Of a DNA stretch of 64,000 nt, positions 21,413 to 63,274 are shown piece by piece (positions within the stretch are counted from its first letter, which is position 1; each line of letters starts with the position of its first letter). The notes under the pieces were generated by a model. That model ran no database searches. It had not been told where the DNA came from and saw nothing but the letters and a program-made list of their open reading frames with translations. Location of the stretch: positions 1,925-65,924 of the forward strand of contig JASMDX010000056.1 of NCBI GenBank assembly GCA_030752605.1. Direction: 5' to 3'. The translations under genes were made by a program, and so were the position numbers. Source of the stretch: Alphaproteobacteria bacterium. GTDB taxonomy: Bacteria; Pseudomonadota; Alphaproteobacteria; GCA-2731375.

Positions 21413-22207
21413 ATGAGCAATACCGTCCTTTATGAGACCGATGGCGCCATCGCCACCGTCACCCTGAACCGTCCCGGCCGCCTGAATGCCATGAACAAGG
21501 AACTGATCGTGGCGATGGTCGAAACCATGGAGCGCGCGTCCTCGGATCTGGCGATTCGCGTTCTGATCCTGACGGGTGCCGGCCGTGGCTTTTGCGCCGG
21601 TGGCGACTTGGCCGGCTTCGCAGATGGCGAATTCAAGGAGGAGCAGGCCATCGAAACCAAGATCGCCGATCTGCGCCAGTCTATGCGGACCTCGCAACGG
21701 CTGCGGGAAAGCTCGTTCGTCTCCATCGCCGCTATCAACGGCGCCTGTGCCGGGGCTGGCCTGTCCTGGGCCCTGGCCTGCGATCTGCGCTATGCGGCGC
21801 AATCGGCCAAATTCTCCACCGCGTTTCTGAATGCGGGCCTGTCGGGGGATTTTGGCGGTACCTTCAGTTTGACCCAGATTGTCGGTACCGCAAAGGCGCG
21901 GGAGTTGTATTTGCTTTCGGACCGCTTCAGCGCCGCCGATGCGGAACGCCTGGGCATCGTTTCGGAAGCCGTGCCGGACGAGGATTTGCTGGCTCATGTG
22001 CGTGGCAAGGCCCTACAGATGGCCGATGCCGCGCCCGTTGCCCTGCGCTGCATCAAACAGAATCTGAATGACGCCACCAAATTGAGCATGTCTGAGGCCA
22101 TGGATAATGAGGCCGACCGGCACAGCCGCTGCGGCACCACCGAGGATAACACTGAAGCTGCCAAGGCCTTTCTGGAGAAACGCAAACCGTCCTTCAAAGG
22201 CCGGTAG
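21413..22207 (+). CDS. enoyl-CoA hydratase/isomerase family protein
   Basis: ATVTLNRPGRLNAM, LTGAGRGFCAGGDL, AAINGACAGAGLSWALACDLR. Confidence 0.9.
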   Translation: MSNTVLYETDGAIATVTLNRPGRLNAMNKELIVAMVETMERASSDLAIRVLILTGAGRGFCAGGDLAGFADGEFKEEQAIETKIADLRQSMRTSQRLRESSFVSIAAINGACAGAGLSWALACDLRYAAQSAKFSTAFLNAGLSGDFGGTFSLTQIVGTAKARELYLLSDRFSAADAERLGIVSEAVPDEDLLAHVRGKALQMADAAPVALRCIKQNLNDATKLSMSEAMDNEADRHSRCGTTEDNTEAAKAFLEKRKPSFKGR

Positions 22208-22796: not shown

Positions 22797-23071
22797 CCAC
22801 ACCGAAGCCCGCATTTGGGGTTGCCAAGCCTCCAGCGCGTCGCGTTTCATCTGCCGCCGTTCGGCCCTCGGTCTGCGCCAGTCATGACCAAAGGCAACGG
22901 ATTCCCGGCTGCCATAGGCGGGATTGGCCAGCATGAACCATTTTTAGCCCTACATATCGGTATGTTTTACGCACTGGGCCTGGCGCACCGCCATGTTGCC
23001 ATTCCCGGCGATCACCTTATGGTGTTGGCTCCCGCGCATCTCTAACCCAGGATACAAAAAGGAACGATCGT

Positions 23072-24298
23072 ATGAGTGAGGACGCCATGATCTTATCGGG
23101 CATCAAGGTGTTGGATGCCGCCAGCTTCATCGCCGGGCCAGTGGCGACCACGATCATGGCCGATTTTGGCGCCGACGTGATCAAGGTGGAGCCGCCCTTG
23201 GGCGATGGCTACCGGCCACTGCATACGGTGGCGGGCATGCCACAGGCGGAGGAACCCTATCACTGGCTGGTGGACAACCGCACCAAACGCGGCCTAGCGC
23301 TGGATCTGAGCGTGGATGCCGGGCGCGAGGTGATATATAGGCTGGTGGCGGAGGCGGATGTATTCGTGACCAATTTCATGCCCGGTGTGCGAGAAAAGCT
23401 CGGCTTGCTCTACGAGGATCTGGCGCCTCTGAACGAGCGTTTGATCTACGGCTCCATGTCCGCCTATGGCGAGACCGGGCCTGAAGCAGGCCAGACCGGC
23501 TTTGATACCACCGCTTATTGGGCCCGCAGCGGCCTGATGGACCTGGTGCGCCCGGATCCGGACGGTGATCCGGCCCGCTCCATGGCCGGCATGGGGGATC
23601 ATCCGACCGGCGTCGCCCTGTTTTCGGCTATCATGATGGCATTGTACCGGCGCGAGCGTACAGGCCGGGGTGGCCTGGCGCATACCTCGTTGTTGGCGAA
23701 CGGCTATTGGTCCAACGCCTTCATGGCCCAGGCTGCCCTGTGCGGTGCGGCGGTGCCCAACCGTCCCGTGCGCAAGGCTTCGGCGAATGCGCTTTCAAAC
23801 CATTACCGGACTAAGGACGGCCGCTGGTTCATTCTGACCGCTGCCAACGAAGTTAAGGAGTGGACCCGTTTCCCAACCGCCATCGGGCGACCGGAACTGG
23901 CCGAGGATCCGCGCTTTTTGACGCAAGCCGACCGACAGAAAAATGTCGGCGCCCTGATCGCCTTACTGGACGAAGTCTTTGCCCAACAGGACATGGATTA
24001 TTGGCACGAGACCTTCGCGGCCTGTCGGATCACAGTGGGCGTGGTCGCCAAGACGGAAGATATTCTGCACAGCGAACAGGCCCTTGCCGCCGGTATTACG
24101 GTACCGGGCAGCGGTGCTGGTTTTGGCGCCGAGCTGACCATCGATAGTCCCCTCTGGGTCGAGGGGGCTGCCAAGCGGGCCCCCCGCCCGGCCCCGGAAT
24201 TGGGACAGCATAATTTGGAAATTCTGGCCGAGGCCGGATATGACGAAGCCGGAATCGCCGAGTTGAAGGTTCGTGGTGCTTTCGGCGCTGAAAGCTAG
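23072..24298 (+). CDS. family III CoA-transferase (CaiB/BaiF type)
   Basis: LSGIKVLDAASFIAGPVATTIMADFGADVIKVEPP, ADVFVTNFMPG, plus a conserved GMGDH region. Confidence 0.9.
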   Translation: MSEDAMILSGIKVLDAASFIAGPVATTIMADFGADVIKVEPPLGDGYRPLHTVAGMPQAEEPYHWLVDNRTKRGLALDLSVDAGREVIYRLVAEADVFVTNFMPGVREKLGLLYEDLAPLNERLIYGSMSAYGETGPEAGQTGFDTTAYWARSGLMDLVRPDPDGDPARSMAGMGDHPTGVALFSAIMMALYRRERTGRGGLAHTSLLANGYWSNAFMAQAALCGAAVPNRPVRKASANALSNHYRTKDGRWFILTAANEVKEWTRFPTAIGRPELAEDPRFLTQADRQKNVGALIALLDEVFAQQDMDYWHETFAACRITVGVVAKTEDILHSEQALAAGITVPGSGAGFGAELTIDSPLWVEGAAKRAPRPAPELGQHNLEILAEAGYDEAGIAELKVRGAFGAES

Positions 24299-24312
24299 AC
24301 GAGGAGAATAAA

Positions 24313-25581
24313 GTGGTACGATTAGCAGATCTGGACGAGCCGGAACGCTCGCACTTGGCCAATATACCTTGCGCCAGTTTCGATGCCGAGCCCTGGGTTA
24401 CGGGCCCGCCCCTGACGGAACGGCGGATCGCGATGATCTCCACCGCCGCGCTGCAGCATCGGGACGACACACCGTTCCTGATCGGTACCGGTGATTACCG
24501 CTACATTGCCGACGATACGCCAGCCAGTGACCTGGTCATGGCGCATATCTCGACCAATTTCGACCGCTCCGGCTTCGAGCAGGACCTGAACGTGGTGCTG
24601 CCCCTGGACCGCATGCATGAATTGGCCGAGGCTGGCGAAATCGGCTCCGTCGCGCGGTTCCATTACGCCTTCATGGGCTCCACCGACCCGGTGCAGATGG
24701 AAGCTGCAGCCCGCGCCATGGCTGGCCATCTTAAGGCGGATGGGGTCGATAGCTGTATCTTGCTGCCTGTTTGACCCTTGTGTACGCGCGCCGTGGGCGG
24801 GCTGGCACATTATCTGGAAGACGAAGGCCTGGCGACGACGCAGATCAGCCTGATCCGGCCGCAGACGGAGAACACGCGGCCGCCGCGCGCTCTGTGGGTG
24901 CCGTTTGAATTGGGCCGCCCATTAGGCGCGCCCAATGACGCGGCTTTTCAAGCCAAGGTGCTGCGGACCGCCTTGGCCCTGCTGGAACGGACGGACGGTC
25001 CGGTCATCCTGGACGACTTTCCCGAAGATGCGCCGGTTTCTGGGGCGGCGGAAAATGATGAGGGCTGGTTCTGTCCCATTAATCTGCCGCCACCGCCCGC
25101 TGATCTGGAAGCGGGTGGCGGTTACAAGGTGGCCATACAGGCGGAAATCGGCGGTCTGACCACGTGGTATGATATTGCCCTGCGCGAGCGTGGGCGGACG
25201 ACCATGGGTCTCAGCGGCATGAAGATCGACGAGATCACGGATTTTGTCTGCGCCTTTCTGGATAGCCAGATACCGGAAAACCCAAACGAAGGCCAAAGCC
25301 TGGGGCAAAGCCTGAAATTCGCCGTCGAGGATCTGAAGGCTTTTTACCGCGAGGCCGCTGGTGCGCAACCGGGGCAAAATACTGGCAAGGAAATGAATGA
25401 CTGGTTCTATGGCAGCACGGCGGCGGGTAAGGCGATGTATGCGCTGTGGCCCATCGCCGATAACCTGGCGAAACAGTCGGGCGATGAATTCATGAAAATA
25501 TTCGCCAATCTGCTGTTGATCCCCGCGTCGCAGAAATTCCGGGCAAAGGCGGCAAATACGAAGGGGGAGGCCGGAACATGA
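24313..25581 (+). CDS. GrdB/PrdB-family (glycine/sarcosine/betaine/D-proline reductase B-like) selenoprotein; TGA at 24772..24774 read as Sec
   Basis: ORFs 24313..24774 and 24778..25581 share one frame and are separated only by TGA-CCC. Joined, they read ...AGHLKADGVDSCILLPV-U-PLCTRAVGGLAHYLEDEGLATTQISL. This parallels the GrdB selenocysteine region (GVD..IL...U..CTR......E..GI). The N-terminal half has the GRDB-family pattern (RIAMISTAAL, DYRYI, H....FD, FPLDR-like LPLDRMHELAEAGEIGS). Total length is 421 codons, close to GrdB size. Confidence 0.8.
24781..24809 (+). promoter_or_regulatory. candidate SECIS-like hairpin downstream of the Sec UGA (hand-folded, imperfect)
   Basis: ugu/aca outer pairs flank a CGCGCC...GGCGGGC stem (24785..24804) with one G-G mismatch and one bulged U. 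The G/U-containing apical loop (cGUGg) lies about 18-22 nt after the UGA. Confidence 0.3.
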
Positions 25582-26528
25582 CGGCCAAGCTGGCAATCCT
25601 GGATGACTATCAGCGGGTAGCGCTGGAGCTGGCGGATTGGTCTGGCCTGCCAGGAGATGTGGAAATCACTGTTTTCGATGACAATCTGGCTGACCTGGGC
25701 GCAGTGGCCGAACGCTTGGCGCCATTTGAAATCCTGGCCGCCATGCGGGAGAGGACGCCCTTTCCCCGCGTCTTGTTCGAAAAACTGCCGAACCTGAAAC
25801 TGCTGGTCACCACGGGCATGCGCAACGGTGCCATCGATATGGCGGCGGCGGCGGAGCACGGCGTCATCGTCTGCGGTACCTTGGGCAGCACCGAATCCAC
25901 GGTGGAAATGATCTGGACCTTGATCCAGGCCGTGGTCCGCCGCCTGCCGCAAGAGGACAGGGCGACCCGCGAAGGTAAATGGCAGACCAGCGTGGGCTGG
26001 ACCTTGGCCGGGCGCACCCTGGGCCTGGTTGGTTTGGGCCGGCTTGGCGTGCGGACCGCCGCCATCGCGAACTTTTTCAATAAGCGGGTTATTGCCTGGA
26101 GCGAAAACCTGACGCTCGAGCGGGCCGCTGAATGTGGCGCCGAACTTGTTTCGAAGTCGGATTTGTTCAAGCAATCCGATATTGTCTCGATCCACCTAAT
26201 ACTGTCGAAACGCAGCCGCGGCCTGATCGGCGCCGATGACCTTGCCTCGATGAAATCGGAACCTTAACTGGTCAACACCGCGCGCGGCCCCATCGTTGAC
26301 GAGGCCGCGCTGCTGGAGGTCTTGCGTCAAGGCCGTATCGCCGGCGCGGCCCTGGATGTCTATGATCAGGAGCCTCTGCCCAAGGATCATCCGTTGCTGG
26401 TTTTGGATAACACCATTATCTCGCCGCATATGGCGTATGTAACCGAGGAAAACCTGACGCAATTTCATCGCGAAACCGTGGAAGATATCGTCGCCTGGCT
26501 AAGTGGCCAGCCGATCAGAGTGCTTTAA
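25578..26528 (+). pseudogene. D-isomer-specific 2-hydroxyacid dehydrogenase with an in-frame TAA
   Basis: ORFs 25578..26267 and 26322..26528 are in one frame: ...GLIGADDLASMKSEP[TAA 26265..26267]LVNTARGPIVDEAALLEVLRQGRIAGAALDVYDQEPLPKDHPLL...SPHMAYVT. The stop falls inside the conserved MK....LVNT.RG block. The Rossmann motif GLVGLGRLG is upstream. The ATG overlaps the selenoprotein stop (ATGA). Confidence 0.8.
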
Positions 26529-26550: not shown

Positions 26551-26639
26551 GGCCTAATATTTTTCTTTGCTATTGTTAATCGATGGCACGCCAAGCGAGA
26601 TGAATCGTAGAAAATCACGATAAATACCAAATTATAAAT

Positions 26640-26770
26640 ATTTTATTAAATGCAGTTTTGTGCATTTTTAAATAATAATATCTACAATTTATCATTATAG
26701 ACCCAGTATTTACATAATAATGTAAAACTACATTAACACAAATAGGCAAAAATTCTGGATGTATTGCCTA
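26640..26770. promoter_or_regulatory. AT-rich intergenic island with three separate inverted repeats upstream of the hemerythrin gene
   Basis: AAATGCA-N6-TGCATTT (26648..26667), TTTACAT-N4-ATGTAAA (26709..26726) and TAGGCAA-N14-TTGCCTA (26743..26770). They sit in a visibly AT-rich stretch within otherwise GC-rich DNA. Confidence 0.4.
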
Positions 26771-26913: not shown

Positions 26914-27330
26914 ATGACCTTGGTTGCCTGGCAGGCAGAGTTCGAAACCGGTATTTCTTCGGTGGATTTTGAACATAAGGAGATGGTGGAGCTGTTCAAC
27001 CAGCTTTCCATCGAGCTTGACCACGATCCCAATGACGATGCGATCGGAGATTTTCTGGGCGAGGTTTTAGCCAATACCTCGGCCCATTTCGTACTCGAGA
27101 AAAAAATCATGCGCGATACCGGTTATGACGAATACAAGCTCTACAAAGCGTATCACGAACAGTTGCTGGATGCCATCCGGGACATCATGGATGATCACCA
27201 TATGGGTGAATTCGGCGACGTTCCCGACTTATTGGCCGGACGTCTGAAAAACTGGTTCTAGGAGCATTTCCACGCCTTTGACGCTCGCCTGGGCCATTTG
27301 ACGGAAGGCGCGGCAGTCGCGCATTCATAG
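26914..27330 (+). pseudogene. bacteriohemerythrin gene interrupted by an in-frame TAG
   Basis: MTLVAWQAEFETGISSVDFEHKEMVELFNQL...TSAHFVLEKKIM...YHEQLL...LKNWF[TAG 27259..27261]EHFHAFDARLGHL...*(27328..27330). The stop sits inside the terminal W-x-x-x-H-x-x-x-x-D iron-ligand motif of hemerythrins. Confidence 0.75.
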
Positions 27331-27776: not shown

Positions 27777-29045
27777 ATGGGATATCTACGATTCCTCTTT
27801 AAGAACCGGCGTTTCCTTAGTTTCGGCATTCTGATCGCTTTCTTTTCGGCCTTTGGACAAACCTTCTTCATTGCCGTGTTCGGGCCTGAGATCCGGGCAG
27901 AGTTCGGCTTGAGCCATGGTGGTTTTGGCGGCTATTACGCCATTGGCACCCTTACATCTGGTTTTTGCCTGATCTGGGCCGGCAAGTTGATCGACCGTTT
28001 CGACCTGCGCTGGGTTACCGCCGGAGTATGCACGGCCTTGATCCTGGCTTGCGCCAACATGGCGATGGTACCTGCCGCCTGGGCCCTGGCGCCGGCCATA
28101 TTCGCCCTGCGCCTCTGCGGCCAGGGTCTGATGAGCCATACAGCCATGACCTCCATGGGGCGCTATTTCGAGGCCGAGCGTGGCCGCGCCGTTTCCATTG
28201 CAATCTTGGGTTTTCCTGCGGGCGTGGCGGTCTTCCCCGGTCTGGCGGTTTGGTTGATATTGGTGTTTGACTGGCGTACGGCGTGGATCGCCGTTGCTAT
28301 CACCTTGGCGGTGTTCCTGATCCCCCTGGCCCTGTGGTTGTTGAAAGGCCATACCGCGCGGCACCGGTATTTTTTGGCCCAAACTGAAACCGTCCAGAGT
28401 GCCACGGACCAGATCAGTGCGGCGGCGGCATCGATGCGGCGGCAATGGACCCGGGCCGAAGTTTTGCGCGATCCCCGCTTTTATCTGTTGTGCATCGCGA
28501 TCACGGCGCCGTCTTTCATCTCGACCGGATTTTTCTTCCACCAGGCGCATCTGGCGACCGCGAAGGGCTGGAGCCTGGCCTGGATGGCCTCCGCCTTTGT
28601 CGCCTATACCGTCGGCGCGATTGGCGCCAACTTGGCCTTTGGTCCGCTGATCGACCGTTTCGGCGCCCGTAAATTGCTGCCCTATTACCTCTATCCATTG
28701 ATGCTGGCCTGCCTCTCCATCGCTGTGTCCAGTCATCACATGGCAGCAATGGCCCTAATGTTTTTCATGGGCCTGACCAGCGGCAGCGGGCAGACGCTGA
28801 TTGGCGCGGCCTGGCCGGAATTTTATGGCGTCATGCATTTAGGCGCCATCCGAGCCATGGTGATGTCCATGAGCGTGGGCGCTTCGGCCCTATCGCCCGT
28901 CGTGGTCGGATGGTTGATCGATCGTGGCGTGGCCATGGAAACCATGGCAGTTGGCTTTTTGGTTTATTTGGCCTTCGCCTTCGCCAGCATACTGATTGCC
29001 CTTGCTCGCCCCGAGCCGGCAGCCGAAGAAGGAAACATGGCATGA
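27777..29045 (+). CDS. MFS transporter
   Basis: About twelve hydrophobic segments, with a GKLIDRFDLR loop motif. ATG at 27777 (TTG at 27762 is also possible). Confidence 0.85.
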   Translation: MGYLRFLFKNRRFLSFGILIAFFSAFGQTFFIAVFGPEIRAEFGLSHGGFGGYYAIGTLTSGFCLIWAGKLIDRFDLRWVTAGVCTALILACANMAMVPAAWALAPAIFALRLCGQGLMSHTAMTSMGRYFEAERGRAVSIAILGFPAGVAVFPGLAVWLILVFDWRTAWIAVAITLAVFLIPLALWLLKGHTARHRYFLAQTETVQSATDQISAAAASMRRQWTRAEVLRDPRFYLLCIAITAPSFISTGFFFHQAHLATAKGWSLAWMASAFVAYTVGAIGANLAFGPLIDRFGARKLLPYYLYPLMLACLSIAVSSHHMAAMALMFFMGLTSGSGQTLIGAAWPEFYGVMHLGAIRAMVMSMSVGASALSPVVVGWLIDRGVAMETMAVGFLVYLAFAFASILIALARPEPAAEEGNMA

Positions 29046-29821
29046 AGCAATACGCGGACGGTAAGATCCTGCTAGAAACCCAGGGCCCGGTCACGACCGT
29101 GACCATCAATCGGCCGGAAGTGCGCAATGCCCTCGACAATGATGCGGCGCGTGGTCTGGGCCGGGCCTTGCGGGATTTTGATGCCGATGAAAGCCAGCTT
29201 GCCGCCGTGCTGACGGGCACTGATGGCGCCTTTTGCGCCGGCGCCGATCTGAAAGCAGTGGCGGACAGCGCCGAATATGTCGCCTGGGCCGGCGATCCGG
29301 AGGGGCCGACCAATCCAACCCTGTCAAAGCCAGTGATCGCGGCGGTGGAAGGCCATGCGGTTGCTGGCGGCCTGGGCATCGCCCTGTGGTGCGACATTCG
29401 TTTGGTCGATGAAACTGCGGTCTTCGGTGTCTTCTGCCGCCGTTGGGGCGTGCCTATGAGCGACGGCACCACTGTGCGCCTGCCGCGTCTGATCGGCGCG
29501 GCGCGGGCCTTGGATATGTTAATTACGGGGCGTGGCGTGGCCGCCGACGAAGCCATTGATTGGGGTCTGGCGACGCGCCGCGCCCCCAAGGGGGAAACCC
29601 GCCAGGCAGCGGAAGAACTGGCCTACCAGATTGCCGCCTTTCCCCAGATCGCCATGCGTTCGGACCGGATGTCGGCATATCGTCAGGCCGGGCAAAGCCT
29701 GGCGGACGCGGTGGCGGAGGAAAAGGAGCTGTCCCAGGCCGCCAAGGCAGCCGAGGCCCAGGCTGGCGCGGCACGCTTCGCCGCCGGCGAAGGCCGCCAC
29801 GGCGATTTCGGCAAGAGTTAG
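29042..29821 (+). CDS. enoyl-CoA hydratase/isomerase family protein
   Basis: The ATG at 29042 overlaps the MFS stop (ATGA). VTTVTINRPEVRNAL, LTGTDGAFCAGADLK, AAVEGHAVAGGLGIALWCDIR. Confidence 0.9.
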   Translation: MKQYADGKILLETQGPVTTVTINRPEVRNALDNDAARGLGRALRDFDADESQLAAVLTGTDGAFCAGADLKAVADSAEYVAWAGDPEGPTNPTLSKPVIAAVEGHAVAGGLGIALWCDIRLVDETAVFGVFCRRWGVPMSDGTTVRLPRLIGAARALDMLITGRGVAADEAIDWGLATRRAPKGETRQAAEELAYQIAAFPQIAMRSDRMSAYRQAGQSLADAVAEEKELSQAAKAAEAQAGAARFAAGEGRHGDFGKS

Positions 29822-36781: not shown

Positions 36782-37828
36782 ATGTTGCAGGAACGTCTCG
36801 AGGGAAAATGGATAGACTGCTTCGCGGCTGTCTTCGAACGTTGCAAGTTGGCGCCGGGCGAGGTGGCGGCAATTCTGTCGGAAAGCCAATCTCGGCCCAT
36901 CAATGTGCAATTGGCGGAATTGGCCCTGCATCGGTTGGGCGCACAGCCGTTTCACATAGTGGTCCCGACGCCCGCGCAATCGTCGCCCGTGCCAGTGCGT
37001 TCCACCGGCGCTTCGGATGTGATCCAGAATATTCGCCCTGTCGTGGGCGCCCTGGCCAGCACCAGTTTTGTCGTGGATTGCACCGTTGAAGGCCTGTTGC
37101 ATGCTCCGGAGCTGCCCGAAATCCTGCAGGGCGGCGCCAGGGTCTTGATGATCTCCAACGAGCACCCCGAGGCCGTGGAGCGCCTGGCCCCGGATGATGC
37201 CCTGGAAGGCAAGGTCAAGCTGGGCATGAAGATGCTGCGGGAGGCCAATACCATGACCATACCCTCGGCTGCCGGCAGCAATCTGGCTGTGGATTTGACG
37301 GGCGCCGTGGCGGGTGGCGGTTGGGGCTGGGTTACCCGACCCGGTATCATGTCGCACTGGCCGGACGGGCTTTGTCTGTGTTTTCCCAATACCGGTACCG
37401 TCAACGGTACGCTGGTCTTGGATCGGGGTGATGTAAACCTGACTTTCAAGCGCTATCTTGATGCACCCATAACATTGCGGATCGAGGATGATTATGTAGC
37501 AGCCATCGAAGGCGATGGCGTCGACGCGGATCTGATGCGCAGTTATTTTGCGGCCTGGGATGACCGGGATGCCTATGCCACCTCGCACATCGGCTGGGGC
37601 ATGAACCAAGGTGCGCGATGGGATGCTATGACCATGTACGACCGTAGGGATTTCAATGGCACCGAGCTGCGCGCCTTTGCCGGCAACGTGGTCTATTCCA
37701 CCGGTGCCAACGAAGTGGCGGGCCGGCAAACCCTAGGCCATTTTGATCTGCCCATCCGCAACTGCACCGTGCAGCTGGACGACCAGGCCGTGGTCAAGGA
37801 CGGCGTATTGCAAGGTGAGTTGGCATGA
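36782..37828 (+). CDS. NicX-like 2,5-dihydroxypyridine 5,6-dioxygenase family protein (aminopeptidase-T fold)
   Basis: HWPDGLCLCFPN..GTLVLDRGDVNLTFKRY...ITLRIEDDYVAAIEG, SHIGWGMNQGARWDAM, RAFAGNVVYSTGAN, GHFDLPIRNCTVQLDDQAVV. This closely parallels my recollection of Pseudomonas NicX. Confidence 0.8.
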   Translation: MLQERLEGKWIDCFAAVFERCKLAPGEVAAILSESQSRPINVQLAELALHRLGAQPFHIVVPTPAQSSPVPVRSTGASDVIQNIRPVVGALASTSFVVDCTVEGLLHAPELPEILQGGARVLMISNEHPEAVERLAPDDALEGKVKLGMKMLREANTMTIPSAAGSNLAVDLTGAVAGGGWGWVTRPGIMSHWPDGLCLCFPNTGTVNGTLVLDRGDVNLTFKRYLDAPITLRIEDDYVAAIEGDGVDADLMRSYFAAWDDRDAYATSHIGWGMNQGARWDAMTMYDRRDFNGTELRAFAGNVVYSTGANEVAGRQTLGHFDLPIRNCTVQLDDQAVVKDGVLQGELA

Positions 37829-39033
37829 CGGCGCCGGCGCAGGCTGAACTACTTGCCACCGCGTGCCGTCTGGGCCGGGATAAATTCCTCGCCCGCGCTC
37901 CCGCCTACGACCGGGAGGGCCGGTTCCCAACCGAGAATTATGCCGATCTGCGCGATGCCGGCTTTCTTGGGCTTGTCATTCCCGCGCGATACGGCGGTCT
38001 GGGCGTGGATTACAAGGGTTATATGGAGATCTCGGCGGAGTTGGGGCGCTGGTGCGGGGCCACGGCGCTAACCTTCAACATGCATTGCGCCACCATGTTG
38101 TGGTCCTCGCAAATGGCTGATGACCTGGAGATGGCCGGGGAACAGCGCGCGCTGCATGAAAGCCGCCGCGCGGGCATTTACCGCAAAGTGATCGAGGATG
38201 GCGCGATTTTCGCGCAACCATTTTCAGAGCCCAACAGCGCGGCGGCGGCAGGTAGGGCGCCCTTTGGCACCACGGCGCGCAAGGTGAAAGGTGGCTGGCT
38301 GGTTAATGGCCGCAAACATTTTGCCTCCCTGGCCGGTGCGGCGGACTTTTACGGCGTGCTCTGTACTGAGGCCAAGGAGAACGGCGAAGCGGACGTCAAG
38401 GACACCATCTACCTGGCCGTCGATGGCGTGTCGGAAGGCTTTACCATTAGCGGCGAGTGGGATGTCCTGGGCATGCGGGCGACCTCGTCCAATAATTTGG
38501 GCCTGGTGGATGTTTTCGTACCCGATGAACATCAGCTGATGCCGCGGGGCGGGTATTATCAGGCCGCCAGGAACTGGCCGCACATGTTCATGACGCTGTG
38601 CCCCACCTATATGGGCATCGCCCAGGCGGCGTTCGATTTTACCTGCCAGTATCTGCGCGGCGAAGTCGAGGGCGGCCCACCCGCCGGCAGCGCACGGCAC
38701 AGCCCGGCCAAGCAGCTGGCGGTGGCTGAAATGCGCATCAAGCTGGAGCAGGCTCGTGCGCTTTTCCAATGTGCAATTGCAGAGGCCGGGGTTAATCCGG
38801 CCAAGGATACGCGCTTGCGGGCCTATGCGGCGCAATATACGGTGATGGAGTTCGCCAATGACATTTGCCGCCTGGCACTGCGCACCTGTGGCGGGCGGGC
38901 CATCTTTCGCAATTTGCGCCTGGAGCAATTGTATCGGGATTCCCGCTGCGGCGCCTTGATGCTACCCTGGACGCCGGAGATCTGCATGGAGCGCCTGGGT
39001 TGGGAAAGCCTGTTCGAGGCAGGCGAGAGTTAG
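37825..39033 (+). CDS. acyl-CoA dehydrogenase-fold flavoprotein (possibly a group-D flavin monooxygenase rather than a true ACAD)
   Basis: It has the three-domain ACAD layout (FPTENYADLRDAGFLGLVIP; GGWLVNGRKHFASLA; TISGEWDVLGMRATSSN). The start overlaps the NicX-like stop (ATGA). The C-terminal RDSRCGALMLPWTPEI lacks an obvious ACAD catalytic-Glu context. Confidence 0.8.
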   Translation: MTAPAQAELLATACRLGRDKFLARAPAYDREGRFPTENYADLRDAGFLGLVIPARYGGLGVDYKGYMEISAELGRWCGATALTFNMHCATMLWSSQMADDLEMAGEQRALHESRRAGIYRKVIEDGAIFAQPFSEPNSAAAAGRAPFGTTARKVKGGWLVNGRKHFASLAGAADFYGVLCTEAKENGEADVKDTIYLAVDGVSEGFTISGEWDVLGMRATSSNNLGLVDVFVPDEHQLMPRGGYYQAARNWPHMFMTLCPTYMGIAQAAFDFTCQYLRGEVEGGPPAGSARHSPAKQLAVAEMRIKLEQARALFQCAIAEAGVNPAKDTRLRAYAAQYTVMEFANDICRLALRTCGGRAIFRNLRLEQLYRDSRCGALMLPWTPEICMERLGWESLFEAGES

Positions 39034-39062
39034 TTAGAGAGACAGTTAGAGAATTTGGGGCG

Positions 39063-40577
39063 ATGGATATTTCTCACTGGATCAGCCATTGGGCCGATTG
39101 GCATGGTACCAAGACGGCGGTGCATTTCGAGGGCCGGGACATCAGTTATGGCGAGATGGACGCCAGGGTTCGGCATCTGGCGGCCATGTTGCAAAGCCAC
39201 CTGGGCGTAAGCAAGGGCGATAGGGTGGCGCATCTCGGGTATAACAGCCCGGAGCTGTTAGAATTGCTGTTTGCCTGTGCCCGCCTGGGCGCCATGCTGG
39301 TGCCCTTGAATTGGCGTCTGGCGCCACCCGAACATGCCTGGATCCTGCGTGATTGCGAGCCCAAAGCGGTGCTGGCCGAAGCTGATTTTTTTGAACATTT
39401 GAACGGTATTGATGCCGGCCTGCCCCTCGTGGCCTATGGCGCTGCCCTCGATGACATTTGGCAAAGCTACGAAGGATTGCTGGCCGCGACTGAAATGGTG
39501 CAAGCAACGGGCGGTGGTGGCCTAGATGATCCGCTGACCATTGTCTACACCTCCGGCACCACCGGGCGGCCCAAGGGCACGCTGTTGACCCAGGAGGCTA
39601 TTTTCCACAACGCGGTCAACGCTATCGCGGCCCAGGACATCATCGCCGACGACCATATTCTGACCGTGCTGCCCATGTTCCATGTGGGCGGCATGAATAT
39701 CCACACCACGCCCGCCATCCATGCCGGCGCCACCGTCACCATTCAGGCCCGTTATGATCCCGCCGCGACCTTGGCCGCCCTGGCGCGGTGCAAGCCGACA
39801 ATTTTTCTAACGGTGCCGGCCATGGCCATGACCTTGACCGGTCATCCCGACTGGGCGGCGACGGACCTATCCAGCCTGCGTTTCGTTGCCCTTGGCTCTT
39901 CCGCTGTGCCGGAGACGATCCTGCGTGCATTTCTGGATCGGGGCATTGCCGCGACACAAATCTACGGTCTGACGGAAAGCGCGCCGGTCGCTATCTGCCT
40001 GCCGATTGCCGATGCCTGGTCCAAAATAGGGTCCTGCGGCAAGCCGGCCCTGCATACCCAGGCGCGTATCGTAGACGATAACGGCGATGATGTAGGGCAG
40101 GGGAATGGCGGCGAGATCGTGCTGCGCGGCAAGAACTTGTTCCGCGAATATTGGTGCAATGCAACGGGCACAGCGGAGGCCTATGAAGGCGGCTGGTTTC
40201 ACACCGGCGATATCGGGCACCAGGACGATCAAGGCTACTATTATGTAGACGAGCGCAAGAAGGACGTGGTGATTTCGGGTGGCGAGAATATCTACCCGGC
40301 GGAGCTGGAGAATATTCTGGCTGATTGCCCGGACCTGGCGGAGGCCGCAGTGGTCGGCCGGCCCGATCAGCGCTGGGGCGAAATTCCCGTGGCTTGTGTG
40401 GTGTCCCAACCGGGCAGCGATATTCAGGGCACCGATATAGTGGCCCTGTTCGAGGGGCGCTTGGCCCGCTACAAGCATCCGCGCGAGGTGATCTTCATGG
40501 ATGCCTTGCCGCGCAACGCCATGGGCAAGGTGGAAAAATTCACCCTGCGTGATGAACTTGCGAACGATGATGGATAG
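39063..40577 (+). CDS. AMP-dependent acyl-CoA synthetase/ligase
   Basis: From the ATG at 39063. IVYTSGTTGRPKG (AMP motif), YGLTES, WFHTGDIG, VDERKKDVVISGGENIYPAELE, PRNAMGKV. Confidence 0.9.
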   Translation: MDISHWISHWADWHGTKTAVHFEGRDISYGEMDARVRHLAAMLQSHLGVSKGDRVAHLGYNSPELLELLFACARLGAMLVPLNWRLAPPEHAWILRDCEPKAVLAEADFFEHLNGIDAGLPLVAYGAALDDIWQSYEGLLAATEMVQATGGGGLDDPLTIVYTSGTTGRPKGTLLTQEAIFHNAVNAIAAQDIIADDHILTVLPMFHVGGMNIHTTPAIHAGATVTIQARYDPAATLAALARCKPTIFLTVPAMAMTLTGHPDWAATDLSSLRFVALGSSAVPETILRAFLDRGIAATQIYGLTESAPVAICLPIADAWSKIGSCGKPALHTQARIVDDNGDDVGQGNGGEIVLRGKNLFREYWCNATGTAEAYEGGWFHTGDIGHQDDQGYYYVDERKKDVVISGGENIYPAELENILADCPDLAEAAVVGRPDQRWGEIPVACVVSQPGSDIQGTDIVALFEGRLARYKHPREVIFMDALPRNAMGKVEKFTLRDELANDDG

Positions 40578-54595: not shown

Positions 54596-56323
54596 CTACG
54601 ATGCGGCCTTGTTGCCGCCCAGCAGCTTGCGCATATGTTCGTTCACCTGACCGCTGTGATGGCGGGCGGTTTTGCCCGTTGGCTCCAAGGTTTCGTCGTA
54701 GAAGAACGACGGCAGTTCGTCATCATCCTCGGTGAAGCCGGCCTGGCGGTTGAATTCCCACTCCAGCTGCAAGGCTTCGCGGCCCAGATCCTTCATGAAG
54801 GAAGCGTCGAAATTGGTGCCGTGGGCATCGTTGACGGCGGCTACGATCAGGCCTTGATTGATGTTGGTGACCGAGCGCCCGAACAGGCAGAGACCCATGG
54901 AATCCGCCGCCGCGCAGTCTTCCTGAATATCCAGGCTGGCCTCGGTCAATTCCTCGGTCGTCATATCGGCGCTCTTGTGACCGGGGATATTGCCCGCCGT
55001 ATGATCAGCGCCCTGAGCGGTCAGCATCATGGAAATGCCGGTAACCTCGATGGCGCGGGGGTCATAGGCGCTGATGCCCTGGTTCTTGATCACTGGAATA
55101 CGGGCGACATTATAGTGTTTGCCAACCCGGCCGGCACCCTGGGCCAGGATGCGGCCCCGCTCGTTGCCGGCGCGCATATCGTCCATTGCGGCCAGCATGA
55201 AATCGGCATCGCCGAATTCGCCTTCGCCGGCTTCCATCAGCACGCCCAGCATGGCCCCGACCTCGATTGTATCGATGCCCAGGTCGTTACATTGATGGTT
55301 CGTACGGGCCACGTCGTCGGGATCTTTCAGGCCGCAGTTGCTGCCCAGCAGGCCAAGGGATTCATACTCCAGCGGTGAGACCATCTCCTCGCCGTTCTCG
55401 TCCACATAGACGTTGGAGCACTTGATCATGCAACCAGGCATGCAAGCATGGGTCGTCTCACCGCCCCGTTCGATGGTCAGATCACGGATATAGCTGCCGC
55501 CCAGCTTCAGAGTTTCCTCTGATGCGTCGACCAGGCGGCCATCGCTGAAATTGCGTGTCGGCAGGCCGCCCAACTGGTTGGTCAGATCGCTGACCATCGC
55601 CGTGCCGAACATGGAGAAGGCCTCGATCGCCTTGTCCTCGCGCAGCAGCTTGCCGTATTCACGGACCCGGCCCATGACCTTCTTGCGGTCGTGGAAGGTG
55701 GGCATTTTGTTCATATCGACGATGATCGCCTTGACCTTCTTGCTGCCCATGACCGCACCGACGCCACCACGCGCGGCGATGCGCACGGGCCGGCCTTCCG
55801 GATCGGGGAACGAGATGCCGGCGACCAGGCCGCCGTATTCGCCGACCGGGCTGCACAGACCCATGGAGATCTTGTCGCCGTATTTTTCGAACAGCTTCGC
55901 CGCCGTTTCGATATTGCCCATGCCCAGAAACGGTGTCGCGTCATCAAAGCTGATATCTCCCTCCTTGCTGACGCGGATGATCACCCAGTCGTTGGAGGCG
56001 CCTATCAGGGTTATGCCGGATATCTCGCATTGGCCCATGGCAAATGCAAAGGTGCCGCCGGCGTTGGCTTCCTTGACGCCGCCTGTGAGCGGGCTTTTGC
56101 AGCCGACAGAGATGCGGTTGGCGTTGGAAAAGTTGGTGCCGGCCAATGGCCCGGCGGAAAAAATCAACGGATTGCCCGGCGATAGCGGATCGACCTTCGC
56201 CGCACCCTTTTCCAGCAGAGTCTTAGCAATGAAATACCGGCCCACACGAATGCACGCCGCGCCGGTCAGCTCCTCGGTCTCGGTGGATTGGTCATCGAGG
56301 TTTATGTGCAAATATTTCCGCAT
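54596..56323 (-). CDS. aldehyde:ferredoxin oxidoreductase (AOR) family, tungsto-/molybdopterin enzyme
   Basis: MRKYLHINLDDQSTETEELTG, NPLIFSAGPLAGT, ISVGCKSPLTGG (N-terminal AFOR_N domain), and the C-terminal ...DSMGLCLF... and ...AGFTEDDDELP. Confidence 0.85.
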   Translation of the reverse strand: MRKYLHINLDDQSTETEELTGAACIRVGRYFIAKTLLEKGAAKVDPLSPGNPLIFSAGPLAGTNFSNANRISVGCKSPLTGGVKEANAGGTFAFAMGQCEISGITLIGASNDWVIIRVSKEGDISFDDATPFLGMGNIETAAKLFEKYGDKISMGLCSPVGEYGGLVAGISFPDPEGRPVRIAARGGVGAVMGSKKVKAIIVDMNKMPTFHDRKKVMGRVREYGKLLREDKAIEAFSMFGTAMVSDLTNQLGGLPTRNFSDGRLVDASEETLKLGGSYIRDLTIERGGETTHACMPGCMIKCSNVYVDENGEEMVSPLEYESLGLLGSNCGLKDPDDVARTNHQCNDLGIDTIEVGAMLGVLMEAGEGEFGDADFMLAAMDDMRAGNERGRILAQGAGRVGKHYNVARIPVIKNQGISAYDPRAIEVTGISMMLTAQGADHTAGNIPGHKSADMTTEELTEASLDIQEDCAAADSMGLCLFGRSVTNINQGLIVAAVNDAHGTNFDASFMKDLGREALQLEWEFNRQAGFTEDDDELPSFFYDETLEPTGKTARHHSGQVNEHMRKLLGGNKAAS

Positions 56324-58431: not shown

Positions 58432-59697
<1,266 letters not shown>

Positions 59698-59827: not shown

Positions 59828-60154
59828 ATGTCCGCTTTCTATGAACTGCGCCAATATCACGTCCTTCCCGGCAAGTTGGATGCTTGGGTCAAGGTGATGG
59901 AGGACGAGATCATCCCCTTCCAGGTTTCCAAGGGCATGGTCATCTGCGGTAGCTTCCAGGGCGAGGAAGACGACAGCGTCTATGTCTGGCTGCGCCGTTT
60001 CGAAAGCGAGGTACAGCGCGAAGAGCTGTATGCGGCGGTTTATGAATCAGACTATTGGAAGAACGAGATGAGTCCCAGGGTGCCCGACTATCTCGACCGC
60101 TCCAAAATGGTAGTAACGCGGATTATTCCGACAACAAAATCCACAGTGCGTTAA
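59828..60154 (+). CDS. NIPSNAP family protein
   Basis: MSAFYELRQYHVLPGKLDAWVKVMEDEIIPFQ...VYVWLRRFESEVQRE. Confidence 0.75.
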   Translation: MSAFYELRQYHVLPGKLDAWVKVMEDEIIPFQVSKGMVICGSFQGEEDDSVYVWLRRFESEVQREELYAAVYESDYWKNEMSPRVPDYLDRSKMVVTRIIPTTKSTVR

Positions 60155-60162
60155 GGCCTCAA

Positions 60163-62430
60163 TTGAACGATACCGACACTGACGCCGCATCCCGTCCAGA
60201 CCTGCTTGAAAAGGTCACGGGCCGCGCTGTCTATGCCAGCGATATTTCCGTCCCCGGCATGGCACAGGGCCGCATATTACGCAGTACGGTGCCCCATGCC
60301 CGCATCGTCCGTCTGGATTGTGCCGCCGCCGCTGCCCTTGAGGGCGTGATCACGGTACTGACCGGTGCTGATCTTGCCAGCCTAGCGCAGGACCATTGGG
60401 GCCTGTTTCTCAAGGACCGCCCGGTCATAGCTGTTGATAAAGTTCGCTATGTAGGCGAGCCCGTTGCGCTGGTGGTCGCGGAGACGGCCGCGATCGCGGA
60501 GGCCGCCCTCGACCTGATTGATGTGGACTACGAAGACCTGCCGTTTGTTGACAATGCCGTGTCGGCCATCGCGCAAGGGGCCCCACTATTGCATGAAAGC
60601 CACGAAACCATCGCGGATTTCTATTTCAAGGGCGAGGCCAAACCTGTTGCCGGCAGCAATGTTTTTCAGAAGTTTCAAGTCAGCACAGGTGACGTGGATG
60701 CGGCCGAGGCCGCAGCGGCAGGTGTGTTCGAGCACAGCTACAGCTTTCCCGGCGTATCTCATTTTGCGCTCGAACCCCATTGCGTGGTCGCCGCGTTCGA
60801 AGAGGCGGATTTGACTGTATGGTCCGGTGCCCAATCACCCACGGCGGTGCAAAAGGTGCTGTCGCGGGTTTTTGGGCTGGCGCTGGCCAATATTCGTGTC
60901 ATCGTGCCGCATGTTGGCGGCGGCTTCGGCGGCAAGGCGTCGGTCAAGGTCGAACCGTTGGTCGCCGCCGCCGCCTACAAGGCCCGCCGCCCGGTCCGGG
61001 TCGCGCTAAGCCTGGAAGAATCCATGCTGACCTGCCGCCGCCTGGGCGCCGAGATCACCTTGCGCACCGCCGTTGATGAAAATGGCAAGGTTCTCGCTAA
61101 ACGCGCCGCCATTCTGCTCGATGGTGGTGCCTATGCGGATACCGGGCCGGCGGTCGCGGTAAAAGCGGCGCACCGTGTCATCGGTCCTTATGGGATTGAA
61201 AATCTGGAAATCGAGGCGAAGGCCGTCTACACAAATACGGTGCCGGGTGCCGCCTTCCGCTCCATTGGCGGCCCTCAGGCGGTGTGGGCGACGGAATCCC
61301 AGATGGATGAAATTGCCGAGTCCCTGACCATTGACCCGGTCGAATTACGCCGGCGCAATCTGTTGCCGCGCGGCGGGAAAATTCTCGATACCCTACGTCC
61401 CCTCGACGTGGATATGGGTGAAATGCTGAGCCAAGCGGACCGGGCAATGACAGCGCTAGGCAGTGGTCCCGCCGCTGGCCTGGCGATGGCGGCGACTGAT
61501 CCTGGCATCATGCCTATCGGCGGCGCATTGGTCCGTGTCCTGGCGGATGGTTCAATTGTCGTGATGTCCAACAGTGTGGAGATCGGCCAGGGGGTCCGTG
61601 CCGTCTTGCGTGAGGTAGCGGCCAAGACTTTGAACCAGGATCCAGCCGCAATTCGGGTTGCCAATCCAGACACGGCGGCGGCACCCTTTGATTGGGGCAC
61701 CGGGGCCAGCCGCTCCACCGTGATCATGGGCCTTGCCGTGGAAGACGCGGCGCGCGATGCCTCTGATCAGATACTGGCTCTGGCCGCTTCCGTGTTCGAT
61801 GGTGCGCCGAACGACATTCGGTTGGTGCCGAGAGGTGTTGCCCATGGCGATGATGTGCTTTCGTTTCAGAATCTCTATCACAAGGCGTTTGGTGTCGATT
61901 CCGGCGAGGTCGTAGGCCGTGCCATGGTGACCCCAGTACGTGGCGGCAGCGATTTCACGAAATCTCCGCTGTTTTGGGAAACCGCCGTGGGTGCGTGCGA
62001 TGTCGAGGTGGATGAAGAAACTGGCGAGGTCGCGGTCAGCCGTTATGTGGGCGTCGCCGATATTGGCAGGGCCATCAACCGGACCGGCGCCGAGGGCCAG
62101 GAAGAAGGCGCCTCGGTACAAGGCATGGGGCATGCGATGTTCGAACATCTGGATTATGTCGACGGCCAACCGGTCAATGCCACGCCTGTGGCCTACCGGG
62201 TGCCGGCGGCGGGTGATATTCCCGCACATGCCCATACCGTTTTGATCGAGAACGGCGACGGCCCCGGCCCCATGGGCGCCAAAGGCATGGGCGAAGGCGG
62301 CATTCTGCCGGTTGCGCCGGCCATCGCAAACGCGTTGGCCCGCCGCCACGGCATCCGCATTCGTGATCTACCCCTGACCCCGGAACGTATATGGCGCGCC
62401 TTGCGAAATCGGGGCGATGATGCTCCCTAA
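60163..62430 (+). CDS. xanthine dehydrogenase/aldehyde oxidase-family molybdopterin-binding large subunit
   Basis: LLEKVTGRAVYASDI, RYVGEPVALVVAE, GGGFGGK, AFRSIGGPQ, and GEGG near the C-terminus. The start is taken as TTG 60163, just after the NIPSNAP stop, because there is no in-frame ATG downstream of it. Confidence 0.85.
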   Translation: MNDTDTDAASRPDLLEKVTGRAVYASDISVPGMAQGRILRSTVPHARIVRLDCAAAAALEGVITVLTGADLASLAQDHWGLFLKDRPVIAVDKVRYVGEPVALVVAETAAIAEAALDLIDVDYEDLPFVDNAVSAIAQGAPLLHESHETIADFYFKGEAKPVAGSNVFQKFQVSTGDVDAAEAAAAGVFEHSYSFPGVSHFALEPHCVVAAFEEADLTVWSGAQSPTAVQKVLSRVFGLALANIRVIVPHVGGGFGGKASVKVEPLVAAAAYKARRPVRVALSLEESMLTCRRLGAEITLRTAVDENGKVLAKRAAILLDGGAYADTGPAVAVKAAHRVIGPYGIENLEIEAKAVYTNTVPGAAFRSIGGPQAVWATESQMDEIAESLTIDPVELRRRNLLPRGGKILDTLRPLDVDMGEMLSQADRAMTALGSGPAAGLAMAATDPGIMPIGGALVRVLADGSIVVMSNSVEIGQGVRAVLREVAAKTLNQDPAAIRVANPDTAAAPFDWGTGASRSTVIMGLAVEDAARDASDQILALAASVFDGAPNDIRLVPRGVAHGDDVLSFQNLYHKAFGVDSGEVVGRAMVTPVRGGSDFTKSPLFWETAVGACDVEVDEETGEVAVSRYVGVADIGRAINRTGAEGQEEGASVQGMGHAMFEHLDYVDGQPVNATPVAYRVPAAGDIPAHAHTVLIENGDGPGPMGAKGMGEGGILPVAPAIANALARRHGIRIRDLPLTPERIWRALRNRGDDAP

Positions 62431-63274
62431 ACCTTTTGATTATCACCGCCCTACAACCCTTGACGACGCATTGTCGTTACTGGCGCGCCACGGCGACGAC
62501 GCCTCCCCTTATGCGGGGGGTACGGAGCTGCTGCTGGCTATGAAAATGCATTTCGCCGACTATGATCATTTCGTGGACTTAAAGCGGATAACGGCGCTGC
62601 GTTCAATTGCCCGCCATGGTGACGTGCTCTCCATCGGCGCGCTGGCAACTCATGCCGAGATCGCCGCCGACGGTGTGGTCCGGGACAACCTGCCGGTGTT
62701 GGCGGGGCTTTGCGCCTCGATCGCCAATGCCCGTGTCCGCGCGACGGGCACCATCGGAGGCAATCTTTGCTTCGCCGAACCCCGCGCTGACCCGCCGGTG
62801 CTGTTGTCGGCACTGGATGCGCAATTGTGTCTGCGGTCCATGCACGGCAACCGCTGGGTTTCCGCTGGCGAATTCGTCACCGGTGCGCTTGAGACCATAC
62901 GTGCGCCCGACGAGCTATTGCTGCGGATCGACGTTCCCCTGGGTATGGGCAAGACAGGCTATGAACGGGTTGTCCACGGCCATCGCACCATGGCCGGCGC
63001 GGCGGCGATGCTTGGCCGGGATACGGTTGCCGCACCGCGTGTCTGGGCCGGCTGTGTCGCGGCCCATCCCGTGCCCCTTGTCGCTACCCAGAACTACATT
63101 GCGGCCAACCCGGGTATCGTTGATGACAACCTGACAGAGGCGATCACAGCGGATGTCGCCATGCTCGATATTACCGATGACGAAGATGCCAGCGCAGAAT
63201 ACCGCCGGCATTTGGCGGTGACGGTGGCGCGTCGCGCTATTGCCGCGGCGCTCGGCGAAAAGGCGTCTGCGTAA
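62417..63274 (+). CDS. FAD-binding (CoxM-like) medium subunit of the molybdenum hydroxylase
   Basis: PFDYHRPTTLDDALSLL, AGGTELLL, ARVRATGTIGGNLC, and ASAEYRRHLAVTVARRA. Confidence 0.85.
   Translation: MMLPKPFDYHRPTTLDDALSLLARHGDDASPYAGGTELLLAMKMHFADYDHFVDLKRITALRSIARHGDVLSIGALATHAEIAADGVVRDNLPVLAGLCASIANARVRATGTIGGNLCFAEPRADPPVLLSALDAQLCLRSMHGNRWVSAGEFVTGALETIRAPDELLLRIDVPLGMGKTGYERVVHGHRTMAGAAAMLGRDTVAAPRVWAGCVAAHPVPLVATQNYIAANPGIVDDNLTEAITADVAMLDITDDEDASAEYRRHLAVTVARRAIAAALGEKASA

Follow-up and report, generated by a model that had tools for sequence, protein, structure and literature searches.

Organization of the locus

The DNA analyzed here is a stretch of 64,000 nucleotides, referred to as the window, from contig JASMDX010000056.1 of the alphaproteobacterial assembly GCA_030752605.1. 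As read from its sequence, positions 23072-26528 of the window are filled by three co-oriented frames on the forward strand, which encode a family III coenzyme A (CoA)-transferase, a selenoprotein that resembles PrdB of D-proline reductase, and a D-isomer-specific 2-hydroxyacid dehydrogenase (2-HADH) (Table 1). These frames are closely packed. The TAG stop codon of the CoA-transferase gene ends at 24298 and is followed by a spacer of 14 nucleotides, after which the selenoprotein gene begins with GTG at 24313, a start position (M/V-V-R-L) that is kept across relatives. The ATG of the 2-HADH frame (25578-25580) overlaps the stop codon of the selenoprotein gene as ATGA, and no convincing terminator-like site was detected between the three frames. 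An earlier note on this DNA had described the frames, their coordinates, the short spacer and the ATGA overlap, and all of these were found as described. It had also given the 2-HADH coordinates as those of a whole gene, having silently read the frame through a TAA codon. The interpretation that we put forward, and towards which we lean with modest confidence, is that the middle gene encodes a selenocysteine (Sec) enzyme of the PrdB/GrdB superfamily that has neither a pyruvoyl subunit of the PrdA/GrdE type nor GrdA, and that forms an operon with the CoA-transferase and the 2-HADH in one clade.

Table 1. Features of the three-gene locus and of selected related loci. Positions refer to the window, except where a locus is named.
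Feature	Position	Strand	Details
Sigma-70-like promoter match	22996..23023	+	TTGCCA-16-TATGGT, 9/12 matches; weak evidence; about 50 nucleotides 5' of CoA-transferase start
Family III (CaiB/BaiF/Frc-type) CoA-transferase, 408 residues, intact	23072..24298	+	PF02515
Shine-Dalgarno sequence GAGGAG	24301..24306	+	Inside the 14-nucleotide spacer, 6 nucleotides before the GTG start
PrdB-like selenoprotein gene, 422 codons including Sec154	24313..25581	+	GTG start, TGA stop at 25579-25581
PrdB-homologous alpha/beta domain, residues 33-227	24409..24993	+	TIGR04483; PF07355 at residues 80-150
In-frame TGA, predicted Sec codon U154	24772..24774	+	Motif PV-U-P-x-C-T-R; C157 at 24781-24783
SECIS-like hairpin GCGCGCC-GUG-GGCGGGC	24786..24802	+	Optional lower stem widens it to 24779-24809
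Family-specific C-terminal helical domain (predicted), residues 235-422	25015..25578	+	Cys254 = TGT at 25072-25074
D-isomer-specific 2-HADH, pseudogene in the sampled strain	25578..26528	+	PF02826 and PF00389
TAA nonsense codon, codon 230 of the 2-HADH	26265..26267	+	Conserved Tyr in relatives
Tandem paralogue loci	L029 8773-11209; L038, L048 8775-11209; L055 4500-6941		MurJ/GlnD genes on one side, a downstream gene on the other
Cys homologues beside SBP_bac_5-type ABC importers	L088 6001-12205; L090 1-7212		Falsiroseomonas selenitidurans; JGI metagenome contig

The in-frame UGA codon is predicted to encode selenocysteine

A scan of GTDB with one genome per species detected at least 564 loci encoding relatives of the selenoprotein, of which the best 80 were retained. 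Together with four near-identical assemblies of the window contig, these gave 84 loci in which the position of the internal stop codon was compared. In all 84 loci, which come from many phyla, the aligned stop lies within the motif P-[VI]-U-P-x-C-T and the protein homology continues downstream of it. The codon was TGA in each of the 76 loci for which it was extracted. The motif in the window reads PV-U-PL-C-TR, with the pair U154-P-L-C157. Several full-length homologues (P0046, P0054, P0055, P0063 and others) carry a cysteine at the Sec position, within the motif LPVCPxC[TS]R. Among 73 read-through sequences, U154 and C157 were conserved without exception, while C254, which sits in a W-x-C-P-I/V loop, was present in 70 and C20 in 63.

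The bacterial Sec insertion sequence (SECIS) is a stem-loop located shortly 3' of the UGA codon, with a G in its apical loop. In the window, a SECIS-like hairpin with the apical loop GUG begins 14 nucleotides after the U of the UGA. In a set of 70 sequences, 96-100% form its pairs 16:30, 18:28, 19:27 and 20:26. Since the stem is too invariant for covariation to reach significance, we used the entropy of synonymous sites instead. Third codon positions had a mean entropy of 0.35 bit within the hairpin stem, compared with 1.43 bit in the remainder of these 60 nucleotides; the four-fold-degenerate sites of the stem are almost fixed and the loop codon varies freely. Such a pattern is characteristic of an RNA structure superimposed on a coding sequence, and it fits the layout of a bacterial SECIS. 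Folding of the 91-nucleotide region of the window alone gave a z-score of +1.3, which is not informative by itself. Because the stop is conserved, because cysteine homologues align at its position, and because it is followed by a hairpin with fixed synonymous sites, we conclude that the middle gene encodes a genuine selenoprotein, the downstream hairpin helping UGA154 to be read as Sec. This agrees with the earlier note, which had proposed a GrdB-like selenoprotein.

The alternative is that the TGA is a true stop, so that the region would encode two small proteins or would represent a decaying gene like the adjoining 2-HADH. Gene callers indeed give two open reading frames (ORFs) here, one of 153 and one of about 262-267 residues (24313-24774 and 24778-25581), a pseudogene lies next to them, and Sec machinery is missing from the window. 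We nevertheless find this alternative scarcely credible, as the stop occupies an identical codon in all of the compared loci with protein conservation on both sides, the cysteine homologues are single polypeptides, the hairpin shows synonymous-site constraint, and selAB/selD genes adjoin the gene in relatives. The gene calls themselves look like a systematic artefact of Sec genes. Searched against 1.84 billion representative proteins, the post-Sec fragment matched 1122 clusters at E<=0.001, with 219 of them reaching E<=1e-30, and about 145 of the best 150 representatives have their start only a few residues past the Sec codon. In public gene calls, members of this family are thus cut systematically into a 'GRDB' protein of about 150 residues and a domain-less 'hypothetical protein' of about 250 residues.

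The adjacency to Sec machinery was seen in the distant part of the family, a set of 66 loci with 47-55% identity to the window selenoprotein. Twelve of them (L024, L032, L042, L043, L044, L046, L060, L061, L062, L063, L066 and L078) have selA, selB and/or selD within 10 kb, the usual arrangement being selA-selB, sometimes with selD. In these 12 genomes, the PrdB-like gene may be a principal client of the Sec machinery.

The selenoprotein is related to PrdB and has an additional domain

The best full-domain match of the selenoprotein is the PrdB model TIGR04483 (residues 33-227 versus model positions 26-221 of 238, E 6e-31), with a score of 107.7 bits versus a curated cut-off of 300, which places it below the equivalog threshold. 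The GRDB model PF07355 scores 33.7 bits, above its gathering threshold of 22, and the match covers residues 80-150 (model positions 273-344 of 347). The protein-B models TIGR01917, TIGR01918, NF040794 and NF040795 gave 36.2 versus a cut-off of 602, 44.9 versus 65.45, 44.6 versus 800, and 54.7 versus 775, respectively; the GrdH, GrdF, GrdB and general selenoprotein-B subfamily models thus match far more weakly than PrdB, all of them below cut-off. The designation 'GrdB-like' used in the earlier note is correct as regards the superfamily, but the closest relative by score is PrdB, and the GRDB match is confined to a short segment. On the basis of these profiles, the protein is closer to PrdB than to GrdB, a member of the PrdB superfamily with a distinct two-domain architecture.

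This architecture is reflected in its length of 422 residues, versus about 240 for the single-domain PrdB. Residues 235-422 had no Pfam match even at E<=10, and a sequence search of the PDB with the family profile returned spurious matches only (E>0.2). An AF2 model was made for the cysteine homologue P0055 (pLDDT 87.9, pTM 0.88). It predicts an alpha/beta domain, then a linker of lower confidence that contains the conserved cysteine, and then an all-helical domain. Compared with the PDB by Foldseek, this model had no match at E<=0.001, and its TM scores stayed below 0.25 throughout.

The window protein and PrdB of Clostridium sticklandii and C. difficile are homologous over nearly the full length of PrdB. 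As in PrdB, the Sec lies near residue 150 within a U-x-x-C motif, and the window protein probably shares the chemistry of selenolate attack followed by formation of a selenenyl-sulfide. It differs from PrdB in being about 180 residues longer, in ending with a helical domain of its own, and in carrying a third conserved cysteine; moreover, its gene has no prd genes nearby, neither prdC nor one for the PrdA pyruvoyl proprotein. The relationship to GrdB, GrdF and GrdH is that of a shared superfamily, the GRDB match spanning the 70 residues up to the Sec. This match is limited to the C-terminal third of GrdB, and the window sequence U-P-L-C-T-R-A lacks a third cysteine in register, in contrast to the U-x-x-C-x-x-C motif of GrdB (PMC13188914).

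The PrdB homology of residues 33-227, the weak match to GrdH (betaine reductase), the U-x-x-C motif, and the use of the name PrdB by public pipelines and in the selenoproteome literature would all be compatible with a canonical B subunit of D-proline (or glycine/betaine) reductase, whose PrdA/GrdE, GrdA and GrdCD partners would be encoded elsewhere in the genome. We consider this very improbable. The scores are far under the cut-offs (107.7 versus 300, 44.9 versus 65.45, 54.7 versus 775), there is an extra domain of 190 residues, and the GrdB motif is lacking. The hosts found in the GTDB scan include surface-ocean SAR116, SAR202 and Rhodospirillaceae-labelled metagenome-assembled genomes (MAGs) and are not anaerobes alone. 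The gene neighbourhood also argues against it. In true prd operons, prdA adjoins prdB. The pairs grdA-grdB and prdB-prdC are adjacent in true operons as well (PMC13188914). By contrast, neither GRDA nor Gly_reductase was among the listed neighbour families (top 25 per scan) of the two nearest ORFs on each side in the 66 distant loci. For the window itself, we relied on the precomputed Pfam annotation of window-identical contigs, which cover nearly all of the 64 kb. These maps contain no GRDA, Gly_reductase (GrdE/PrdA, or GrdG/I), GrdC/D-type, thioredoxin or thioredoxin-reductase gene, in line with the earlier note, according to which Grd/Prd partners are absent nearby.

The family has been catalogued as marine 'PrdB'

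The earlier note had described proteobacterial GrdB-like proteins as having, to its knowledge, no assigned function. Searches of the literature ('PrdB-like', 'GrdB-like' and related terms) indeed revealed no functional study of it, but the family is no newcomer, being already catalogued in 2005 and 2008. The Sargasso Sea selenoproteome lists 42 Sec-containing genes, with a UxxC motif, under the name 'Proline reductase PrdB' (Zhang, Fomenko & Gladyshev, PMC1088965), and the GOS (Global Ocean Sampling) selenoproteome lists 235 Sec and 110 Cys PrdB genes, which places PrdB among the most abundant marine selenoproteins (Zhang & Gladyshev 2008, PMC2398784). Sequences in the 2005 supplement (AACY01078217, AACY01068648, AACY01016836 and others; PMC1088965) show the motifs PVuPNCTRSVG...PRALWVSFPLGRPLG...EELKFFYLEAMTARPG and EELKFFYLEA. 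Because these supplement sequences share its motifs as well as its long C-terminal region, the window selenoprotein belongs to the same family as the marine 'PrdB' of the two catalogues. The Sargasso set also includes a shorter subfamily of PrdB length (PMC1088965). In the portions consulted, both papers catalogue the family under the PrdB name; gene context, the extra domain, the missing partners and function were not found there.

The three-gene arrangement is conserved in one clade

The flanks of the selenoprotein loci were mapped by tblastn with the CoA-transferase and the 2-HADH of the window. In all 11 GTDB species loci with at least 73% identity, the CoA-transferase lies upstream of the selenoprotein gene. 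The 2-HADH lies downstream in L005-L013, and the contigs of L014 and L018 end before the position of the dehydrogenase. These loci form one monophyletic clade of marine Alphaproteobacteria, and the MAGs are labelled Rhodospirillaceae or Alphaproteobacteria. A scan of metagenomes with the CoA-transferase gave the same picture: on contigs whose CoA-transferase has at least 76% identity and that reach past this gene, the selenoprotein gene followed it in six of six cases, and the dehydrogenase came next wherever the contig was long enough; the full trio was present on L091, L092, L095 and L096. On a seventh contig, L098 (86% identity), the sequence stops within the CoA-transferase gene. CoA-transferase copies with at most 51% identity never had the selenoprotein or the dehydrogenase as a neighbour.

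The genes that surround the trio change within the clade. In L005-L012 they are a divergent nucleoside ABC transporter and nucleoside phosphorylases, in the window sugar-nucleotide genes, an enoyl-CoA hydratase gene and hisI, and in L018 genes for a short-chain dehydrogenase/reductase and a major facilitator superfamily (MFS) transporter. The trio in the window is bracketed at a distance by two enoyl-CoA hydratase genes (21413-22207 and 29042-29821), the second of which is paired with an MFS transporter gene; such a pair is also located 3' of the trio in L009.

Both CoA-transferase and 2-HADH flanks were missing, by tblastn, in all of the approximately 66 distant loci. The neighbourhood survey that the earlier note had proposed as a test thus shows the two enzymes to be conserved neighbours of the selenoprotein within the clade (11 GTDB species and metagenome contigs) but not beyond it. 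The changing flanks, the short spacers and the ATGA overlap support the view that the trio is a lineage-specific operon and, since the distant homologues have neither neighbour, that it was recruited in one clade and is not a property of the whole family.

The CoA-transferase matches PF02515 over its full length (model positions 1-366 of 366, E 3.8e-100) and scores below the cut-off of every NCBIfam equivalog. Its nearest solved structures are succinate-hydroxymethylglutarate CoA-transferase (SUGCT), the closest PDB match, and formyl-CoA transferase. Judged by these similarities, it would be nearest to dicarboxylate-type enzymes such as SUGCT. A carnitine (CaiB) route was considered and is less likely, given a CaiB score of 86 bits versus about 165-177 for formyl-CoA transferase and succinate-glutarate CoA-transferase (NCBIfam).

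The 2-hydroxyacid dehydrogenase gene is broken in the sampled population

The 2-HADH matches PF02826 and PF00389, so that both domains are present. Its frame is, however, cut by the TAA at codon 230, which falls within the conserved motif MKPxxY-LVNTARG. Ten relatives have a tyrosine codon (TAT or TAC) at this position, and the frame is intact in L005-L013. The same TAA is found in four assemblies from different samples (L001-L004), each of them at most one base away from the window over the whole trio. In addition to the TAA, L003 has a 1-bp deletion (window position 26078), suggesting that the 2-HADH is still decaying in the population. The gene is left uncalled in the NCBI assemblies and is annotated as two ORFs at JGI. 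Taken together, the sequences point to a real and recent pseudogenisation of the 2-HADH in the sampled population, with the CoA-transferase and selenoprotein genes intact. Because of the pseudogene, a pathway of three enzymes cannot be complete in the sampled strain.

Directly 3' of the pseudogene there is an AT-rich island (26600-26750) with 18-28% GC, versus about 60% for the window. This island holds two promoter-like matches and precedes a small hemerythrin-like ORF (26914-27261).

The family has no recurrent partner genes

Across the family, the neighbourhood of the selenoprotein gene is highly variable. The two nearest ORFs on each side of the 66 distant loci contained 143 and 141 Pfam families, none of which occurred in more than five proteins, and clustering of the ORFs within +/-10 kb of these loci revealed no recurrent unexplained partner. 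De novo clustering over the same distance in 81 loci identified as recurrent only selA/selB/selD and the clade-specific pair. Four species have tandem Sec-containing PrdB-like paralogues, both copies of which have the in-frame TGA (Table 1), and three Cys-type homologues adjoin genes for SBP_bac_5-type ABC importers or TauD/TonB-receptor genes. The arrangement with ABC importers hints at the catabolism of an imported small molecule. Because shared partners are missing, tandem paralogues occur, and Cys forms lie beside importers or TauD, we conclude that the family behaves as stand-alone enzymes with diversified roles.

Stand-alone occurrence could also be understood in another way. The selenoprotein may be a general thiol-disulfide or antioxidant housekeeping protein, in which case its adjacency to the CoA-transferase and the 2-HADH would reflect synteny within a lineage rather than a shared pathway. 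This would explain why the approximately 66 distant loci have no conserved neighbour and why the neighbours are often a class I Trp/Tyr tRNA synthetase (PF00579), MurJ, GlnD or SLT. Moreover, U-x-x-C is a classic redox motif, marine selenoproteins are mostly thiol oxidoreductases according to the portions consulted of the catalogues mentioned above (PMC1088965, PMC2398784), and the sampled strain tolerates the loss of its 2-HADH. We hold this explanation to be rather unlikely, since it leaves the tight spacing and the ATGA overlap unaccounted for, as well as the retention of the trio while the flanks change and the occurrence of this CoA-transferase subfamily only beside the selenoprotein gene. 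In addition, the fold is homologous to that of the substrate-cleaving PrdB and is not a thioredoxin fold, and the tandem paralogues and transporter-linked Cys forms suggest diversification of substrates.

Several observations weigh against our interpretation of the locus as a lineage-specific operon built around a Sec enzyme. Inherited synteny could be responsible for part of the conservation of the trio, as the clade proteins are 68-90% identical, and some downstream genes (DksA-like, MFS transporter and enoyl-CoA hydratase) are common to the window, L009 and L012. The loss of the 2-HADH shows that the selenoprotein and the transferase are not strictly dependent on it. Covariation in the hairpin was not significant in the 70 sequences, the stem being nearly invariant with hardly any compensatory change, and the SECIS structure is for that reason deduced from conservation and not from covariation. 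Furthermore, no selA, selB or selD was found in the window by Pfam maps and tblastn, the sole SelB-like match being a weak one to CysN, and no tRNA-Sec was found by ARAGORN and Rfam, which detected only a tRNA-Gln; the source organism is presumably Sec-competent. The roles of C254 and of the C-terminal domain are conjectural, and our literature searches yielded no gene-context study of the family.

Possible function of the three-gene operon

The chemistry of PrdB (Kabisch et al. 1999, as presented in citing papers) provides a framework for the reaction that the selenoprotein might catalyze. By extension from PrdB, the selenolate would attack the substrate at an electrophilic position, most likely the alpha carbon next to a carboxyl or thioester group, and Cys157 would resolve the adduct as a selenenyl-sulfide. 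The selenenyl-sulfide would then be re-reduced by cellular thiol systems, perhaps via C254 on the mobile linker.

The neighbouring genes offer a clue to the substrate in the clade. D-2-HADH and family III CoA-transferase catalyze the first two steps of the reductive 2-hydroxyacyl-CoA pathways (LdhA/HadA/HadBC-HadI and FldH/FldA/FldBC) by which Clostridia ferment amino acids (Kim et al. 2006, via PMC6384274). Because these two enzyme types open the clostridial 2-hydroxyacyl-CoA pathways, their presence suggests, by analogy, that the substrate or product in the clade is a 2-oxo or 2-hydroxy carboxylic acid handled as a CoA thioester. As in the Had and Fld (FldH/FldA/FldBC) systems, the same two enzyme types are present, here flanking a selenoprotein, and the comparison is an analogy only. 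Unlike in those systems, the PrdB-like selenoprotein stands in the place of the dehydratase, the CoA-transferase is closest to dicarboxylate-type enzymes, and the Pfam maps of the window contain neither a radical [4Fe-4S] 2-hydroxyacyl-CoA dehydratase nor its ATP-dependent activator. Reductive cleavage of a CoA-activated 2-substituted acid, the chemistry put forward in the earlier note, would be plausible. In the Andreesen literature, the B-type selenoprotein of betaine reductase is said to break a C-N bond with no pyruvoyl group involved, given a good leaving group. GrdB-like proteins have also been proposed to act in fluoroacetate dehalorespiration in Synergistota (PMC10838667, PMC12366334). 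Compared by the descriptions in the portions consulted, the resemblance lies in a B-type protein that would cleave a non-amine alpha-substituent from a carboxylic acid, whereas the organism group and the context are different.

A more specific proposal, which we regard as a long shot, is that the selenoprotein is a partner-independent reductase whose Sec/Cys pair strips an alpha-substituent (hydroxyl, amino, thio or onium) from a CoA-activated acid. The CoA-transferase would then form the thioester and the 2-HADH would provide the link to the pool of 2-oxo acids. Such an enzyme would be an oxygen-tolerant selenium counterpart of the radical 2-hydroxyacyl-CoA dehydratase or of Stickland-type C-X cleavage.

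Other genes of the window

Elsewhere in the window, co-oriented genes for a NicX-like protein, an acyl-CoA dehydrogenase and an AMP-dependent ligase are located at 36782-40577 (+). The window further contains a gene of the aldehyde:ferredoxin oxidoreductase (AFOR) family with AFOR_N/AFOR_C domains, and near it a gene for a radical-SAM/SPASM/SEC-C protein and a three-subunit cluster of the xanthine-dehydrogenase/CO-dehydrogenase family; the coordinates of this AFOR-family region are 54596-56323 (-), 58432-59697 (-) and 60055-63741 (+). To our knowledge, an AFOR-family gene is unusual for a marine alphaproteobacterium of this kind.

Implications for the marine 'PrdB' family

For about twenty years, catalogues of surface-ocean selenoproteins have named 'PrdB' as one of the most abundant. 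Yet proline reductase proper is a Stickland enzyme that is anaerobic and built from several subunits, and the bacteria with marine 'PrdB' show no sign of it. What is new with respect to the characterized Prd and Grd systems is that the selenoprotein is free of partners, that it has an extra domain, and that its operon context is confined to one clade. This operon makes the function of the selenoprotein testable, at least in that clade, for which the copy in the window is the poorer model because its dehydrogenase is broken. If the proposal of a partner-independent reductase were true, the clade would offer the first lead to the substrate of a selenoprotein family that is among the most abundant in the ocean.

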